A program made the position numbers. Below, in pieces: positions 18,001-27,000 of a DNA stretch of 29,388 nt (the first letter of the stretch is position 1; every line of letters starts with the position of its first letter). The stretch is from Microcoleaceae cyanobacterium (GTDB lineage Bacteria; Cyanobacteriota; Cyanobacteriia; Cyanobacteriales; Microcoleaceae), in contig JBOFUV010000002.1 of the NCBI GenBank assembly GCA_051652765.1, positions 1 through 29,388 on the forward strand. The letters run 5' to 3'.

Positions 18001-21000
18001 TCACATCCTGATCTAGGTTAACCAAACGGCATTTCTCAACAATTGTGTTGACAATTTGAATACCCCGACCACTGCCTTTGAGGGATTGGTAGGAGCCGAT
18101 CAGTTCGCTGAGTTCCTGTAAACCCTTGTAGAGTCCGGCATTTTCTGCGGCAGGGGTGAGATAGGAAATCGTTTCAGCATAACTGCGGCGTTTGGCAATG
18201 GTGGCCTCACTGGGGTTGTTGGCGGCGTAGTAGTAAATGTTGGGGGTGGAGCCAATTAAGTTGTCAGGGTAACATTCTCCAGACATCCCCATTTGTTTTC
18301 CAGGCATGAACTCCAGGGAACCATGAGTCCCAAAGTGCAAGACTGCATCCGCTTGCCAGATTTGTTCTAGGTAGGTGTAGTAGGCGGCGAACCCGTGATG
18401 GGGACTGGCGGAACGGGAGAACAACAACCGCATTGGATCACCCTCATACCCAAAAGTAGGCTGCACCCCAATGAAGACGTTCCCAAATTCCTTGCCATAA
18501 ACTAGCAGGTTTTCCCCGTCCGTATTCAGGTGTCCGGGAGGTGGCCCCCAATTCTCGTTCAAGCGCTCGGAGTAAGGGGTGAGCCGTTCGTACTGCTGCA
18601 CAGACATTTTGTAGGCAATATTCAGTTCAGGACTCTGATATTGGGCCGTCGCGTCATGGATGACCTCCTGCATGAGTTTTCCGGCGGAGTCAGGCAGACC
18701 TTGAACGTCATAACCATTCTGTTGCAGGGCTTTCATCACTTCATAAATGGAGCCAAACACATCCAGATAGGCAGCGGTGCCGACATTGCCCTTGTCTGGC
18801 GGAAAACTAAAGATCGTAATCGCCACTTTTTTGTTCAATTTGGGCTTTTTGCGAAGACTAGCCCACTTCATGGCCCGCTGAGCGATCGCCTCAATTCGAT
18901 CCTGAAGGGCGATCGCTTTCCCTGTGGCCCCATCTCGACCTGAGACAATAATCGGTTCAATGGCCCCATCTAGTTCAGGAATGGCAATTTGCAGCGCCAC
19001 TTGAATCGGATGTAACCCTAAATCACTCTTTTCCCATTCCTCTGTAGTTTGAAACACCAGAGGTAAGGCCACCATGTAAGGACAATTCAACCGTTGCAAA
19101 GACTCAATCGCCTTGGGATGATCCTGGCGAGCAGGGCCACCTACCAGAGCAAATCCAGTCAGGGACACCATAGTATCCACCAGGGATTGAGATTGAATAC
19201 CCTTGGGGGGAGTGTCCCAAAAATATTCATCTACGGGTTTAGAAAAATCTAAGCCCCCTGCAAATACTGGGATTACCCGCGCTCCCATGGCTTCTAATTC
19301 CTGAACCATGGCAACGTAATGGGCATCATCCCCCGTCACCAGATGCGTCCGTTGCAGCACTAGCCCAATACAAACCGCTAGGGGGTCTTTTTGCTCCTCC
19401 GGAATATCGTCCCGACTGTTGTGCCAGTTGAAGTATTCCCGGGTGGTCTCAAACATTTTGGGGGCGAGGGGATGCCAGATACCCATGTCAGGATACACCA
19501 CAGGGTCAGCATACTTGGTTCCGGCAGCATTCCGCGCTGTAAATTCTGCTCCTTTGAACACATACTTGTCCGCTAGCATTAATAGGAAGTTTTCCAGGTT
19601 TTCGGAAGACCCCCCCAGCCAATACTGGAAAGACAGCATAAAGTTCCGCGCGTCCTGGGCCTTTTCCATGGGCATGTACTTCAGGACTTTGGGGAGGGTT
19701 CGCAGCAGCTTTAACATGCCGTCTTGGAAGGATGAACCGGATTGCTCCTTGCGCTTTTTCATAAATTGAGCGATCGCGCTCTTGCTCTGACCTAGTTGGG
19801 CCATGGAGAAACTGCCCATTTTGTTCAAGCGCATCACCTGAGGCATGGACGGGAAAACAACGGCAACGTCTAGGGTATCTCGATGGGGAGCAACCGCCTC
19901 AACCACTTTCTCTGCTAGGTCTTCGATAAAAATTAAAGAGGCGATAAAAACGTTGGCTTTTGCTACATCGCGCTTGAAGTCTTCGTAGTTTTCTGGGTTC
20001 CGCAGTTCTTCAATCAGGTAGCCACTAATCTCTATCGCCAAGTTTGAATTGTTGCTGTTGATGGAGAGAACAGCAGCAGATAGAGCACTCTGATATTGAG
20101 CCTCCAGAACTACATAGACAACTTTCAGCAGGGGTCTTCCTTCTAGATTGTCAGGCTTAATGTGCCTAACAGTAGGGTTAACGTAGGTGAACATACTGGG
20201 TTAGTGTTTCCTCTAGGTCGGCTGTCTCAAACGATCAATCTCTGGATCTAGTACAGCTAAAAGAGCTATACCATGAGTATTTTTACCAAAAAATGGGGGT
20301 GATAACATCGTTTTCAACCTATTTGACACAAATCGACAAGAAATTGGAAATTGTTTGTAATAAAGCTTTATATCAGGGGAAGTGTGATTCCTGAATCTGT
20401 TTACATAAGTTAACCTTGACTTCGACTAGCCGTTTTTCTAGACAAGTTTTGTCGGGTGGCAGTTCTGAATCAAGTTTCGCGATAACCTGGCCCGGTTCAA
20501 AATTTCTGATTCATTGAGGGGTGTGGGCAGATGGCAAGACAAACACAGGGGAGCCAGAATTTTAGTAGGAGTCGTTAGACTTTCTGAAACGGCATAGAAC
20601 TGTCCTTTATCCAGTCTGGCAATATCCTGTCCGCTTCCCCCCCGTTGACGCAATTGTTCTTGAATCACCTCAATTGCCGCTGGGGAGTTGGCCCGTCCAT
20701 AAAACTGGGTTGAACAATTGGCGATGATGTTATGGTCAATACTCTTGGGAGCCTGGGTTGCAAAGATAATGCCTAAACCATACTTGCGGGCTTGAGCCAC
20801 AAGACGGTTCAGGCTGGCTTTACACGGTGTCGATGTCGATCCTGCGGGAGCAAAATCCTTGGCTTCATCCAGAACCAACAACCCCCGCAGAGGAGCATGA
20901 CTGGGAGCAGGATTTTTCTTGATCCAGGTAAATAGAGTCATGAACAGTTGGTTCAGAAAGTGTTGCTGGGTTTCGAGACCAGGCAGACCTACAAAGTTGA

Positions 21001-24000: not shown

Positions 24001-27000
24001 TCAAAATTCTGGCTTCAAGCGGCTCGGATAGATTCAGGGGGTGCTCTAAGTGTTCTAACGTCTCTGAATTCTTCGAGTGATCTCGGATTTGCTCCGAGGG
24101 TTTAGAGGTCTCTGGCTGTTGTCTCAGGACTTCTGCTAGAGAAATGTTATGAGATTTCAAATGGGTTCCCAGTTTAATCAGTAATGCTTGTAAAGGCTCT
24201 ACGGCCAACTGAGATTTGGATAACGTCACCCCATAATTTTCTACAGCCCAATCCCAGGCCCGATCAGTTAAGACGATATGCATAGATCGCGATCGCTTTT
24301 CTAGGGTAATCAATCCTGCGTGTTCAAGGGGCTTGCGTTCAGCTGGACTCAGATTTGGCTTGACTTTAGAAATTGCAGGTTCTTCTCCTGTGATTAACAG
24401 GTTCCATAGCGCTAAAGCTTGCTTCGGAGTGGACTGAAAGCTCATGACGACTTCCTAGGTTCTGAACGGTTGACTGCGACGAAACTTTACAACTTCACGA
24501 ATTTTGTTGAGGGCGATCTCAACATCATTCACCACTTCCTGATGGGGCAGTCGGAGCACAAGATACCCACTGATTAATAATTCATAATCCCGATGGCGAT
24601 CCTCAGTAAAGGCAAAGAGAAGGGAGTGATGCCGATAGCCATCAATTTCCACTACCACCTTACCATCTGACCAGAGCAAATCAACCCAATACCATCGCCC
24701 ACAGCAGGTTTGCACCCGTTGATTGAATCCAAAAAGTTCGGCCAACTCACCATCCCGAGACAAGGATTGCGCCAACAGTTGCTCCCCCGGACTACAGGGA
24801 TGAGGTCTACCTTGGATCGGCCAAAGCAGATGACGAGATTCTTCAAGGGTTTCTGGGTTAACGGTTTCTGAGTTAAGCGTTTTTGAGTTAAGAGTTACTG
24901 GGTTAACAGTTACAGGCTCAAGGCTTCCTGGTTTAACGGTTTCTGGGTTAACAGTTTCTGAGTGAGCGGTTTCTGGGTTAAGGATTGGTTCAACGGTTCC
25001 TAAGTTGGGTCTTGAAAAGTCCGTTGCTGCAAGGTTTGACCCTTGGGAAGAGAGAGAAATTGCACCGTACCGCACAGAATCCAATTCTGAACAGTTTGAT
25101 AGTTCCTTTGGAATCAGAACCGCAATACTTGCACCTGTTGATTGCGCCAACCAAGTGGCGGCCTGAGCAAAACTGAGGAGTTTATGGGGTTGAGGATGGC
25201 GATCGCCCATTGCCAAAAGGATCACCAGACTAAACGGGTCAATTGCCAAGGCCAGTTGAGCAACCTGAACCGTTCGAGGAAAATTCGGAAAAATCGGCAA
25301 CTGATTCATTTGACAAGCCTTTACCGCCGCTTTCAGCCAAGGGATAGAGGCATTCTGCCGAGTTGTAGGTAACTCCTGAAGCTTGAAGTGATTGAGCAGA
25401 TCGTCTTCCAGGAGGCTATTGTCCAAGAAAGGCGCTGTAACCGCTTGCCCATACCAGAATGGCCAGAGCCTAAGGGCTGCCTGAGCTAGGGCTTGTAGCA
25501 ATTCTTCTAAAAGAACTTTATGATTGGGCAGAACGTCCCAAGTCTGAATCATGCCCTTTCCCTGATCCAAGTTCGCAAGTTCAGCAACTTCCAGGGAGGC
25601 GATGACTTCATCCACCTCGGTACAGAGAAATGCTCTTACGTCACCGGCGGGAATTTGAGACAGAAACTGACTCAACATTGAAGATTAAGGGGAAATCTGG
25701 GTTGGGTGAGTGGACTTGAGTTCATTGAGGCGAGCCACCAACGCTGGATCTAAGTCAGGCACCGGCAGGTGTTTAATTTCCCAAACCTTTAACAGGATCA
25801 GGTATTCATAAAACGCCTGCAAGGTACACCAGGTAAAACCCGCCCGACCATCCAGCCACCCCCCTAAAAACACATACATGTAAGTAAATCGGACAATGGG
25901 CCGGAGCGGTACTCTCAACGACAAATCCTTCAACGCCCGTCGCCGTTCAACTTCTGAGCGTCCCAACAGTAACTCTTGCCAATTGACTGTGCCTGACTCT
26001 AGCTGTTTTACTGTTTCAATGGCTTCATCCGTAGAGTAACGGTTGTGTTTCTCTAGCCAGCGGGCCATGCCTTTTCCGCAGGTGTAGTGAGGATAGGTTT
26101 CCTTGAGAAAACTCGTGGGGCCATTTAGTACCTCTCGTTCCGTGTGGCCGTAGTCCTCAAACCAAACCTGATCCTTGCGAAAGAGCCGCATTTGATAGCG
26201 AGGATACTGGGTGCTGTGACGAATCCACTGCCCCATAAACATGACCCGTTCGGCTGCGTAGTAACCAATGATCTCTTGACTCTGAATGGCCTCCAGACAT
26301 TCGGCAAACAAGTCCGGAGTCATTCGTTCATCAGCCTCCAAAATGTAAACCCAATCATGTTGGGCTGGAACTTCCTGCAACATCCAAGTCCGTTGACGAC
26401 CGTGGCTCTCAAAGCGATGTTGCACGACTTGAACGGGATAGCTTTGGGCAATCTCAACAGTGCGATCGCTGCTAAAAGAGTCCACCACAATCACATCATC
26501 CGATTGCAATGCTGACTCAATGCAGGCGGCAATGTCAAGTTCTTCGTTGTAGGTCAGGATATAGACTGAGAGCATCTAGAGGTAAGGATTGTCAAAAGTT
26601 AAAGGCTCTATCTTAAACTAAGCTATTTAGATTAATCTATTTAGACTAAGCTACTTAAACCAAGCTACTTAAACCAAGCTATAGCAATTAGAAATAGCAA
26701 TTAGAAATAGCTAATTTATCAGTTGATTGATCAAAAGATGCGGTGGTACAGGCATCTTGATCGCAGGCTGGAAGCCTGCACTACAAGCTTTTACAAATCA
26801 AATCATTTGGGGTTGCTATAGTTGAACGAGGCAGAGTGAGTTAACGTTCAATCTAGCCAATGGGTTGCTTGCGACGACCGCCCAGAATTCCCAAGGTTTT
26901 TAAACCCGTCCAGCCAATCACAATATAACCAATCGACAGTAACAAGCTACTGAGTCCAGTTTGTAGGCTGGATTTCAGAGAGCGAACTTTTGCTTCCTGC

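Follow-up and report, generated by a model that had tools for sequence, protein, structure and literature searches.

Comparative genomics has defined a class of mobile neighbourhoods in which an Orc/CDC6-type AAA+ ATPase, an active restriction-type nuclease, a HerA/FtsK translocase and winged helix-turn-helix (wHTH) proteins are combined in various fusions (Rakesh, Aravind & Krishnan, NAR 2024, PMC10853773). In the sections of that paper devoted to them, these Orc/CDC6-coupled HerA/FtsK neighbourhoods are proposed, as a computational prediction, to represent anti-invader "capture" systems. Some of them are described as fusing a 3'-5' exonuclease and FtsK-alpha to the translocase; the same sections assign their nucleases to "two distinct families, one also found in AbiJ systems" and mention an inactive nuclease insert inside the Orc/CDC6 protein. 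The restriction modules that accompany phosphorothioation, DndFGH and SspFGH, likewise have three components: an ATPase, a small subunit that binds DNA, and a large one with a HerA/FtsK translocase and a nuclease at its end. Where PMC10853773 treats these, DndG is a triple-wHTH protein of 450–500 aa and DndH an eight-domain protein of roughly 1700 aa. A HerA-type hexameric ATPase is also paired with an effector enzyme in the SIR2-HerA, DUF4297-HerA and archaeal NurA-HerA systems. Finally, MADS is an eight-gene, methylation-based operon in which MAD7 and MAD8 form an ATPase-nuclease module that is required for defence, according to the portion of its description concerned with these genes (PMC13662399).

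We analyzed a three-gene cassette located in a 29,388-nt stretch of a Microcoleaceae cyanobacterium genome (hereafter, the window). Compared with the capture class by its published description, the cassette fits this class in predicted domain content: it presents an AAA+-like domain without Walker A fused to a DUF559/Vsr nuclease, a protein with two wHTH domains and an AAA+ ATPase fused to HerA. The first-pass annotation had called the trio undescribed, which does not hold, since a class with matching domain content is predicted in the relevant sections of PMC10853773. Its claim that the trio is not in PADLOC was borne out for PADLOC-DB 2.0.0. The cassette therefore belongs to a kind that was predicted computationally in 2024 and is absent from PADLOC 2.0; it is patchily present in many bacterial phyla and is predicted, most likely, to destroy invading DNA.

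Gene organization and domain content

The three genes are co-directional on the minus strand, as are all features given below, and are transcribed in the order nuclease (g39, 24455..25678), winged-helix protein (g38, 23747..24445) and double ATPase (g37, 20438..23743). The ORF listing confirmed the three-gene operon of the first-pass annotation, with intergenic gaps of 9 nt (g39/g38) and 3 nt (g38/g37) from the coordinates. A 1334-aa ORF, earlier named chlH, lies downstream of the trio (16190..20194). The GT2 glycosyltransferase gene found 6 nt upstream (25685..26575) has no match by tblastn in any of the 40 loci described below, and despite this short gap it stands outside the conserved unit.

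The first protein, g39 (407 aa), is a putative effector nuclease based on its Pfam match to DUF559 and its AF2 model (mean pLDDT 82.5), with an inactive AAA+-like N-terminal domain, a disordered repeat linker and a Vsr/DUF559 nuclease domain. Residues 1–213 (25040..25678) resemble alpha/beta P-loop NTPases (AAA+/STAND/ORC-like) in structure matches obtained with VIA-align: RdrA (8fnt; Z 8.9, 164 aligned, rmsd 3.7), Rif2 (4bj6; Z 8.9), ORC (7jgr_C; Z 8.8) and TnsC (7m99; Z 8.6), all middling Z values that are informative on the fold only. A G-K-[ST] column is missing among the invariant and near-invariant columns of the 48-sequence g39 alignment; judged by its sequence, the domain has lost the Walker A motif. 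The linker is encoded in part by a 15-nt tandem repeat (family D1; 24828..24996) with eight overlapping in-register copies, which specify five-residue repeats inside residues 214–281, where pLDDT falls below 50. Homologs in alignment A2 are typically about 350 aa long and lack this stretch, so that the length of 407 aa is explained by the additional linker. Residues 294–402 (24473..24799) form the Vsr/DUF559-type PD-(D/E)xK domain predicted from structure and profile matches. This domain aligned with 3hrl in VIA-align (Z 12.7, 94 aligned, rmsd 2.0) and also matched I-Bth0305I (3r3p; Z 12.2) and Vsr (1cw0; Z 9.7), while the A2 profile retrieved 3hrl from the PDB at 4.1e-4. Pfam placed DUF559 over residues 314–397 (2.2e-9) and gave MTES_1575 at 0.001, and D333, E344, D346 and H351 are invariant across the 48 sequences. 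Overall, g39 is a predicted nuclease of the Vsr/DUF559 fold with conserved catalytic-type residues.

The second protein, g38 (232 aa), presents two winged-helix domains (residues 1–110 and 140–232) in its AF2 model (mean pLDDT 85). These are joined by a disordered, variable linker, with pLDDT below 50 over residues 113–139, and each half matches winged helices of the MarR type and of the ORC/MCM type (Z 8–9). Neither g38 nor g39 matched any PADLOC model even at E<=1.

The third protein, g37 (1101 aa), joins an AAA+ ATPase and a HerA/FtsK translocase in one chain, as indicated by Pfam and PADLOC. Its residues 1–620 (21884..23743) comprise the AAA+ ATPase and an extension of roughly 350 residues. 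Pfam detected AAA_16 (residues 44–181), AAA_22 and a weak BrxC_BrxD match in this half, where invariant columns mark Walker A (G70-K76-T77) and Walker B (D248/D251); in hhalign, residues 19–545 align at a probability of 98.3% with a 511-aa ATPase that is a separate protein in a related cyanobacterial system. A linker rich in Pro, Glu, Ser and Ala (residues 621–680; 21704..21883) separates the two ATPase halves; it contains short 13-nt repeats (family D2; 21743-21803), and none of its positions reaches a majority consensus in alignment A3. Residues 683–1065 (20549..21697) correspond to the HerA/FtsK-type translocase ATPase, with DUF87 (4.8e-9) and HerA_C in Pfam and with invariant columns at Walker A (G709-K712-T713), Walker B (D959-E960) and T996-Q997. 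In PADLOC, mad8 matched residues 688–1061 at 1.8e-26, along with eleven HerA models. As far as the alignment goes, both sets of nucleotide-binding motifs are intact and invariant. The mad8, DUF559 and MTES_1575 values reproduce those of the first-pass annotation.

The proteins of the cassette differ in several respects from those of the systems cited above. None of the DndF/G or SspF/G/H models matches g37, g38 or g39, g38 with its 232 aa and two wHTH domains and g37 with its 1101 aa are unlike DndG and DndH, and the trio has no linked modification genes. The best PDB matches of the g37 profile (A3) are chains of HerA systems (8xau, 3.1e-10; 4d2i, 1.9e-9; also 8wiv, 1.2e-7), but this similarity is confined to the C-terminal side of the ATPase core, at about positions 900–1060 of the profile. 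NCBIfam antiphage-HerA equivalogs reach 30–33 bits on g37 against cut-offs of 800–850. The cassette also departs from these systems in the additional AAA+ half at the N-terminus of g37, in its effector, a predicted Vsr-fold nuclease borne on a degenerate AAA+ domain, and in an obligatory third, winged-helix subunit. As for MADS, mad8 is the best PADLOC match of g37 and is matched by all 35 family members (35/35), but its profile extends over just the HerA third of the protein, and Pfam scans of the neighbours revealed no methyltransferase, kinase or MAD3/4-like OLD module as a conserved companion of the trio.

Conservation, spread and genomic context

We fetched 40 loci from one-genome-per-species contigs, 38 of which are orthologous (L039 and L040 are not). 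They originate from Cyanobacteriota, Chloroflexota, Thermodesulfobacteriota, Planctomycetota, Myxococcota, Verrucomicrobiota, Pseudomonadota and Actinomycetota. Six-frame HMM searches identified a g38 homolog in 33/40 loci and a g39 homolog in 29/40. The five orthologous loci without g38 (L008, L010, L015, L017 and L018) start inside the ATPase gene or <=161 nt before it, and all 33 loci that have DNA upstream of this gene possess a g38 ortholog. Among the 32 loci with enough upstream DNA, 29 carry a g39 ortholog and the gene order nuclease-winged helix-double ATPase, spanning at least seven phyla; the nuclease gene is missing from L004, L021 and L037 despite ample upstream DNA. All-against-all ORF clustering of the loci returned the trio as the sole shared families and no conserved fourth gene: the next cluster spans six loci, and its three scanned members are histidine-kinase/response-regulator proteins.

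Protein searches yielded 67, 190 and 348 further clusters at 90% identity for g38, g39 and g37, respectively, and the g38 profile 383 representatives at 50% identity (E<=1e-30). With these clusters and the 38 orthologous loci, the earlier statement that only one other occurrence was seen is wrong. The cassette is nevertheless rare per genome, as first proposed: g37 has an ortholog in 2/401 sampled genomes of the phylum, the window's own included, and a true g38 ortholog was found in 1/401 genomes of the order. In a quick IQ-TREE tree of g37 (31 rows), Caldilineaceae are nested within the cyanobacterial clade (SH-aLRT 98), and the sequences group largely by phylum, so the history of the cassette also includes long vertical retention. 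Nucleotide homology to two genomes of the same genus ends at positions 20391/20364 and 25707/25755 of the window, and the trio was not found at the homologous junctions of either genome. Given these breaks at both edges, the strain-specific DNA is essentially the trio. A repeat search revealed no terminal direct or inverted repeats flanking it in the window.

The neighbourhoods of L001–L038 were scanned through 266 ORFs of >=100 aa, nearly all within 5 kb. Clear defence genes adjoin the trio in only two loci, with PglZ and an OLD-type ATPase-TOPRIM in L027, and Mrr and a type ISP enzyme directly downstream of the trio in L028. Genes of the toxin, TIR, integrase, terminase, transposase or antitoxin type occur in six more loci (L001, L019, L029, L033, L034 and L036), including L033 with an integrase nearby, L001 with a terminase nearby and L034, whose copy contains an IS. 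The remaining neighbourhoods are housekeeping or of no known role, as in this window.

Candidate functions of the cassette

We consider that the trio is probably a self-contained anti-invader DNA restriction cassette of the Orc/CDC6-coupled HerA/FtsK capture kind. This agrees with the ATPase-nuclease anti-phage or anti-plasmid system proposed by the first-pass annotation, which is the best-supported reading, given the conserved trio, the conserved nuclease residues, the patchy strain-specific occurrence and the domain-shuffled relatives with other nucleases. The spread over phyla, the defence genes beside the trio in L027 and L028 and the published prediction for this domain set also speak for it. 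It stays a prediction; the literature on this cassette and related ones offered only computational predictions and no phenotype. The mostly non-defence neighbourhoods, the phylum-wise tree, the three loci without a nuclease and the lack of a PADLOC model for g38 and g39 were counted against defence. Under the capture reading, g38 and the AAA+ half of g37 would recognise or load onto foreign DNA, or onto DNA under replication, transfer or packaging, the HerA/FtsK half of g37 would form a ring and pump the loaded DNA, and g39, anchored on the ATPase by its degenerate AAA+-like domain, may cut the captured DNA. As the trio lacks a conserved neighbouring modification gene, self and non-self would be told apart at the sensing and loading step rather than by an epigenetic mark.

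The trio could instead act like DndFGH/SspFGH, as a restriction module that depends on modification and attacks DNA that lacks, or carries, a mark (phosphorothioation or another) made by partner genes elsewhere in the genome. We regard this as unlikely. The SspFGH layout of an ATPase (F), a small protein (G) and a translocase (H) parallels the cassette in the relevant part of PMC8092258, and the related cyanobacterial system has an FtsK domain similar to the C-terminus of SspH (up to 1.4e-68). Another contig of the window's genome (C31) encodes a DndC-like protein of the PAPS-reductase family (150.7 bits; TIGR03183 cut-off 290.4) and, ~5 kb away, a protein resembling phosphorothioated-DNA-binding restriction endonucleases (136.3 bits; cut-off 180), but both fall below the curated cut-offs and neither is linked to the window. 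Moreover, the DndH model is matched weakly by only 6/35 g37 homologs (best 1.9e-5), a modification gene is conserved beside the trio in none of the 38 loci, and PMC10853773 argues, where it discusses DndFGH, for a stand-alone system.

It is quite improbable that the trio is a housekeeping-type repair or recombination module in which a HerA-like motor feeds ends or mismatches to a Vsr-type nuclease, similar to archaeal HerA-NurA end resection. The HerA-type domain of g37, the fold that g39 shares with the Vsr repair endonuclease, the mostly housekeeping neighbours and the g37 tree would all agree with such a role. However, the occurrence in the phylum and the order is far too sporadic for core repair, the homologous junctions of the two same-genus genomes lack the trio, NCBIfam repair-HerA equivalogs reach 27–28 bits against cut-offs of 800–970, and relatives carry unrelated nucleases instead. 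A selfish module is also doubtful, whether its translocase and DNA binders help an element to be transferred, segregated or maintained, or its nuclease serves homing or addiction, with no part in host defence. FtsK/HerA ATPases power conjugative DNA transfer in some elements, and g37 presents weak TrwB/TraD/VirB4 matches; the resemblance of g39 to the homing endonuclease I-Bth0305I, the strain-specific DNA at a variable spot, the three loci with an integrase, terminase or IS, and the mobile-element and defence features that PMC10853773 reports in its account of such neighbourhoods point the same way. Against this, the trio has no conserved partner gene for a relaxase, replication, an integrase or a transposase, an integrase or transposase adjoins it in only 2/38 loci, and terminal repeats are absent around it in the window.

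Modular relatives in the same order

A distant g38 paralog is carried by 128 genomes of the window's order, and the neighbourhoods of the best six were inspected. An ATPase homologous to the N-terminal half of g37 adjoins the paralog in five of these best six. In three of them, we found a protein of 783–880 aa that combines a 3'-5' exonuclease, a Cas4-like PD-(D/E)xK nuclease, FtsK-alpha and FtsK, and that is similar to the C-terminal end of the SspH model in PADLOC (1e-62 to 1e-68). A constant core around which nucleases and translocases are exchanged is a typical trait of defence systems. The paralogous system matches the exonuclease/FtsK-alpha variant of the HerA/FtsK capture systems, as this variant is outlined in PMC10853773.

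Layout and conservation of the three-gene cassette

The cassette consists of three ORFs on the minus strand: the nuclease gene g39 (24455..25678; 407 aa), the winged-helix gene g38 (23747..24445; 232 aa) and the double-ATPase gene g37 (20438..23743; 1101 aa). These coordinates leave gaps of 9 nt between g39 and g38 and of 3 nt between g38 and g37, confirming the tight co-directional run that the first-pass annotation had described. A 1334-aa ORF lies downstream of the trio (16190..20194; named chlH in that annotation only) and a GT2 glycosyltransferase gene (25685..26575; Pfam 1.1e-17) lies 6 nt upstream of g39. 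Scans for promoters and terminators returned counts that did not exceed those of shuffled sequences (respectively, 10 vs 8.0 and 7 vs 8.5) and are therefore uninformative on the limits of the operon.

To assess the conservation of the trio, we collected 40 loci with a pattern scan of contigs representing one genome per species. A g37 ortholog was identified in 38 of them (39–70% identity over the best segment), while L039 contains a partial relative at 28% identity and L040 a fragment of 53 residues. Six-frame HMM searches further detected a g38 homolog in 33 loci and a g39 homolog in 29. The five orthologous loci without g38 begin within the gene of the ATPase or no more than 161 nt ahead of it, and the locus L003, where g39 is absent, extends just ~70 nt upstream of its g38 homolog. 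Three other loci (L004, L021 and L037) have kept the winged-helix and double-ATPase genes and lack the nuclease despite several kb of upstream DNA. These counts indicate that the order nuclease/winged-helix/ATPase is found in 29 of the 32 loci with enough room, the remaining three being nuclease-less. Clustering of all the ORFs of these loci revealed no fourth gene common to them, and GT2 was rejected as a candidate fourth member since it was matched in 0 of the 40 loci. For annotation purposes, this means that the triplets labeled "DUF559 protein / hypothetical / ATP-binding protein" across many phyla represent one unit.

Two additional candidates were rejected in L037. An ORF of 1340 aa resembled a fusion of g38 and g37, but the 5' part of this ORF corresponds to an alternative frame of high-GC DNA, rich in Arg, Pro and Gly, and the g38 homolog is located in a different frame. 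A 360-aa ORF upstream was considered as a diverged nuclease and dismissed based on its hhalign probability (0.04%). Separately, a DDE-transposase gene splits the g37 ortholog of Leptolyngbya sp. PCC 7375 (L034, 11123–12505), whose final ~119 residues continue past the insertion.

Domain content of the three proteins

The alignment of g37 with 34 homologs displays two full sets of nucleotide-binding motifs. The first set comprises G70, G73, G75, K76 and T77 with D248, Q249 and D251, and the second comprises G709, G711, K712 and T713 with D959 and E960, followed by T996-Q997. The N-terminal half of g37 is an AAA+ P-loop domain with invariant Walker A and Walker B motifs. It matches AAA_16 and AAA_22 in Pfam, more weakly BrxC_BrxD (0.0018), NACHT and nSTAND3, as well as Hda/DnaA-type NCBIfam models. 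These matches are consistent with a member of the ORC/Cdc6-STAND assemblage and do not assign it to a clade. The C-terminal third matches DUF87/HerA_C in Pfam and eleven HerA models of PADLOC in addition to mad8, whose previously reported match was reproduced (1.8e-26; residues 688–1061). HerA chains were also retrieved when comparing the g37 profile to the PDB (8xau, 3.1e-10; 4d2i, 1.9e-9). The rest of the N-terminal half (residues ~270–620) is conserved, with invariant H482, R484, E496, H498 and R515, and searches of Pfam, PDB sequences and the ESM Atlas yielded no assignment for it. The best ESM Atlas scores for residues 255–665 (0.87) correspond to cyanobacterial clusters without names and constitute a lead only, and the Atlas lists no structure for the homolog P0148. 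The linker joining the ATPase halves is rich in Pro, Glu, Ala and Lys, and its coding sequence contains three copies of a 13-nt unit with spacings of 18 and 30 nt (window 21743–21803).

The AlphaFold2 model of g38 (alignment of 42 rows; mean pLDDT 85) presents two winged-helix domains separated by a disordered linker of variable length. Each half resembles winged helices of the MarR type or the ORC/MCM type (Z 8–9). No PDB sequence was matched by the g38 profile at E ≤ 0.05, and DndG, SspB and FokI were not recovered; Foldseek searches with the models of g38 and g39 returned nothing at E ≤ 0.001. The mean column identity is 39% for g38 vs 53% for g37, and some members of the g38 family carry extra N-terminal copies of the domain (three in P0338 and two in P0429). 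We also observed five tandem copies of the g38 C-terminal winged-helix domain (profile positions about 125–217) in P0353, a large Ala/Arg/Pro-rich protein of 1351 aa from the representative library. P0353 does not match the g37 and g39 profiles, so that this domain also exists beyond the cassette.

The model of g39 (48-row alignment; mean pLDDT 82.5) is composed of three parts. Residues 294–402 adopt a Vsr/DUF559 fold, with 3hrl (Z 12.7), I-Bth0305I (Z 12.2) and Vsr (Z 9.7) as structural matches, in agreement with the Pfam matches reported by the first-pass annotation (DUF559, 2.2e-9; MTES_1575, 0.001), which we recovered. Four residues (D333, E344, D346 and H351) are invariant across all 48 sequences and are putatively catalytic. 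Based on this fold and these residues, g39 is a putative active restriction-type endonuclease. Residues 1–213 were modeled as an alpha/beta fold similar to P-loop NTPases, and the best matches of this domain (RdrA, Rif2, ORC subunits and TnsC) are middling and informative at the level of the fold only (Z 8.6–8.9). No conserved Walker A motif was observed in this domain across the 48 aligned sequences. The middle part is a disordered linker with five-residue repeats, encoded by an in-register 15-nt tandem repeat (window 24828–24996; eight overlapping 64-nt copies). These repeats account for the length of g39 relative to its homologs (407 aa vs ~350 aa typically) and are absent from the latter, which makes them a recent expansion in the lineage of the window.

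Relation to known systems and possible mode of action

The first-pass annotation had interpreted the trio as an undescribed ATPase–nuclease defence system of a type missing from PADLOC. Our results support this interpretation in part: g38 and g39 present no PADLOC match even at E ≤ 1, and the trio fits a predicted class of defence systems, but this class is not new. In its available text, PMC10853773 (Rakesh, Aravind & Krishnan, NAR 2024) describes mobile neighbourhoods encoding Orc/CDC6-coupled HerA/FtsK capture systems. Their core contains an Orc/CDC6 AAA+ ATPase with an inactive nuclease inserted ahead of its C-terminal wHTH, together with an active nuclease of the restriction type (from either of two families), a HerA/FtsK ATPase and a wHTH, and these parts are variously combined in one or several polypeptides. 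Some neighbourhoods encode a separate, fast-evolving protein with two to four wHTH domains, related to DndG/SspB/FokI, and in others the translocase carries a 3'-5' exonuclease and an FtsK-alpha domain. In the model proposed by the authors, the translocase would intercept the DNA of the invader and the Orc/CDC6 component would localise the restriction apparatus. This proposal is restated in the available part of a 2026 article from the same group (PMC12839542).

Relative to this description, as far as the accessible text goes, the trio presents three of the five features. The restriction-type nuclease corresponds to g39, whose activity is predicted from its Vsr/DUF559 fold and invariant residues. 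The HerA/FtsK ATPase corresponds to the C-terminal part of g37, as indicated by the DUF87/HerA_C, mad8 and HerA models, the HerA chains, the invariant Walker A and B motifs and T996-Q997. The wHTH corresponds to the two winged helices of g38. The cassette thus appears to be a member of a kind of defence system that has been predicted computationally and is experimentally unproven; we found no experimental test of the HerA/FtsK capture class in the literature.

The other systems that we compared are more distant. DndF and DndG models of PADLOC and NCBIfam did not match g37–g39 at E ≤ 1, and the DndH model matched g37 at 0.026 over residues 954–998 (E ≤ 0.01 in 6 of 35 homologs; best 1.9e-5). 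Protein sizes also differ, since DndG is a triple-wHTH protein of 450–500 aa and DndH contains eight domains over ~1700 aa, according to the available text of PMC10853773. The SspF, SspG and SspH models matched neither g37–g39 nor the 35 g37 homologs, and sspBCD-like genes are absent from the window and the conserved neighbourhood. When unrestrained, SspFGH is reported to induce the SOS response or to arrest growth (PMC8092258). For SIR2-HerA and DUF4297-HerA, g37 scored far below the cut-offs (NF042943, 32.7 bits for a cut-off of 800; NF042944, 30.3 bits for a cut-off of 850), and neither SIR2 nor DUF4297 was detected by Pfam in g38 and g39. Among mad1–mad8, only mad8 was matched: MADS is an eight-gene operon with a methyltransferase, a kinase, MAD3/4 and MAD7/8, whereas the cassette contains three genes and no methyltransferase. 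The MANTIS/Gao_RL preprint was rejected as a match because the accessible part describes a methyltransferase-based system.

A paralogous system was detected in the order of the window. Of 400 other genomes of this order, 128 encode proteins of ~265–385 aa (mostly ~290 aa) that the g38 profile matches weakly (1e-10 to 1e-3). We fetched the loci of the six best of these 128 genomes, including those of G306, G273, G393, G190 and G043 (L042–L046; example, L046 5624–13455). In five of the six best loci, the g38 paralog adjoins one or two AAA+ ATPases of 511–688 aa whose homology to g37 covers its entire N-terminal half, based on HMM matches and hhalign (probability 98.3% over g37 residues 19–545 for L042). 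In three of the six (L044, L045 and L046), the operon continues with a protein of 783–880 aa that combines a 3'-5' exonuclease, a Cas4-like PD-(D/E)xK nuclease, FtsK-alpha and an FtsK/SpoIIIE ATPase. This protein matches the C-terminal part of SspH in PADLOC (1.4e-62 to 1.4e-68), a match seen in the paralogous system and not in the trio. Two variations were noted: a TPR/pentapeptide protein is inserted in L044 and a ParA-like gene comes next in L046. Like the trio, the paralogous system matches the capture systems in the available description. Since the ATPase and FtsK modules are separate genes in this system, g37 represents a fusion of two modules, each with its own gene elsewhere. These modular relatives indicate that the winged-helix protein and the AAA+ ATPase form a constant pair, to which different nuclease and translocase modules can be added.

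We then analyzed the neighbourhoods of the loci by scanning 266 ORFs adjacent to the trio in L001–L038, each with a minimum length of 100 aa and nearly all within 5 kb. Most of these neighbours are housekeeping genes or genes without a known role. Clear defence genes were found in two loci only: a PglZ fragment upstream (2948–3733) and an OLD-type AAA_15/TOPRIM gene downstream (13882–15635) in L027, and Mrr with a type ISP restriction enzyme immediately downstream of the trio in L028 (9648–13820). Six more loci have suggestive neighbours: a terminase large subunit and an SNF2/ResIII helicase in L001, a TIR protein in L019, HipA in L029, an integrase in L033, the DDE transposase inside the g37 ortholog in L034 and an Xre-type antitoxin HTH in L036. 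With few defence genes among mostly housekeeping neighbours, the defence-island signal is weak to moderate. Uma2 nucleases were found near several cyanobacterial loci and were left out of the defence count because they are common in Cyanobacteriota.

If the trio is a defence system, it would represent one of the still-unproven HerA/FtsK "capture" designs, in which an ORC-like ATPase, a nuclease and a motor that pumps DNA are proposed to intercept foreign DNA together. We infer that g38 and the AAA+ half of g37 would sense foreign DNA or load onto it, that the HerA half would form a ring and pump the captured DNA, and that g39 would dock through its degenerate AAA+-like domain and cleave the pumped DNA. 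A complex prediction of g37 residues 1–620 with g39 residues 1–215, each entered as an alignment, gave a score of 0.00, which is neutral on docking. No modification gene accompanies the trio, so that self and non-self are probably told apart when DNA is sensed or loaded, and how the host chromosome is spared becomes a testable question. A DNA-repair module or a selfish element would also be conceivable readings of the trio, and we consider both less likely than defence. Alternatively, the trio could act in a modification-dependent manner. Contig C31 of the same genome encodes a DndC-like protein of the PAPS-reductase family (L047, 8140–9396; 150.7 bits) and, ~5 kb apart, a protein similar to phosphorothioated-DNA-binding restriction endonucleases (1945–2919; 136.3 bits). 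However, both fall under their family cut-offs (respectively, 290.4 and 180), they are unlinked to the trio on another contig, and the family models reject Dnd/Ssp membership for the trio itself.

A more specific version of the capture reading, which we regard as improbable in this precise form, is that the cassette captures DNA independently of modification and is organised like the loader of a replication origin. The active ORC-like AAA+ half of g37, the degenerate AAA+ subunit g39 with its nuclease and the winged-helix subunit g38 would form an ORC-like heteromer. This heteromer would recognise foreign DNA by a structural feature as it enters or replicates, would load the covalently tethered HerA ring onto it or activate the ring there, and would cut the DNA reeled in. 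If true, the principle of a loader combined with a ring motor would here serve defence, and self would be distinguished from non-self in a new way, without an epigenetic mark. With three genes in 5.2 kb, the cassette is compact and readily transplanted, and its test would serve as a validation of a whole class defined in silico only, including the paralogous system, whose winged-helix protein has distant matches in 128 of 400 other genomes of the order.

Abundance and history

The cassette is rare per genome. A strong match to g38 (3.6e-86) was found in one of 401 genomes of the order, that of the window itself, and a g37 ortholog in two of 401 sampled genomes of the phylum, counting the window's own. 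Across sequence databases, clustering at 90% identity yielded 67 clusters for g38, 190 for g39 and 348 for g37, the latter among 8000 candidates scored (query excluded in each case). The g38 profile matched 383, 1268 and 2308 representatives at 50% identity (respectively, E ≤ 1e-30, 1e-10 and 0.001) among 1.84 billion. The ESM Atlas contains ten clusters of 51–185 members each with AAA_22+DUF87 proteins of 1010–1190 aa from several phyla, which we treat as a lead only.

We built a quick IQ-TREE phylogeny of 31 full-length g37 orthologs (SH-aLRT support only; midpoint root). The window is sister to the Leptolyngbya MAG of L001 (64% identity; support 99). The cyanobacterial clade also includes two Caldilineaceae (Chloroflexota; support 98), and the other sequences group mostly by phylum.

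Occurrence is also strain-specific within the genus. In two same-genus genomes, nucleotide homology spans the 1334-aa ORF together with the spacer upstream of it, ends at 20391 (G693) or 20364 (G701) and restarts in the 3' end of GT2 (25707 or 25755). The DNA without counterpart in these congeners is thus essentially the three genes. Repeats flanking an insertion were searched for at the edges of the trio DNA and none were found. In the congeners, the two flanking blocks are located on separate contigs, where their neighbours are different, and both genomes also diverge from each other past the same point. Upstream of the 1334-aa ORF (window ~20195–20437, compared with L061 and L062), the DNA thus differs among all three same-genus genomes from one shared point onward. 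This makes the site a variable spot of the genus and not a clean insertion.
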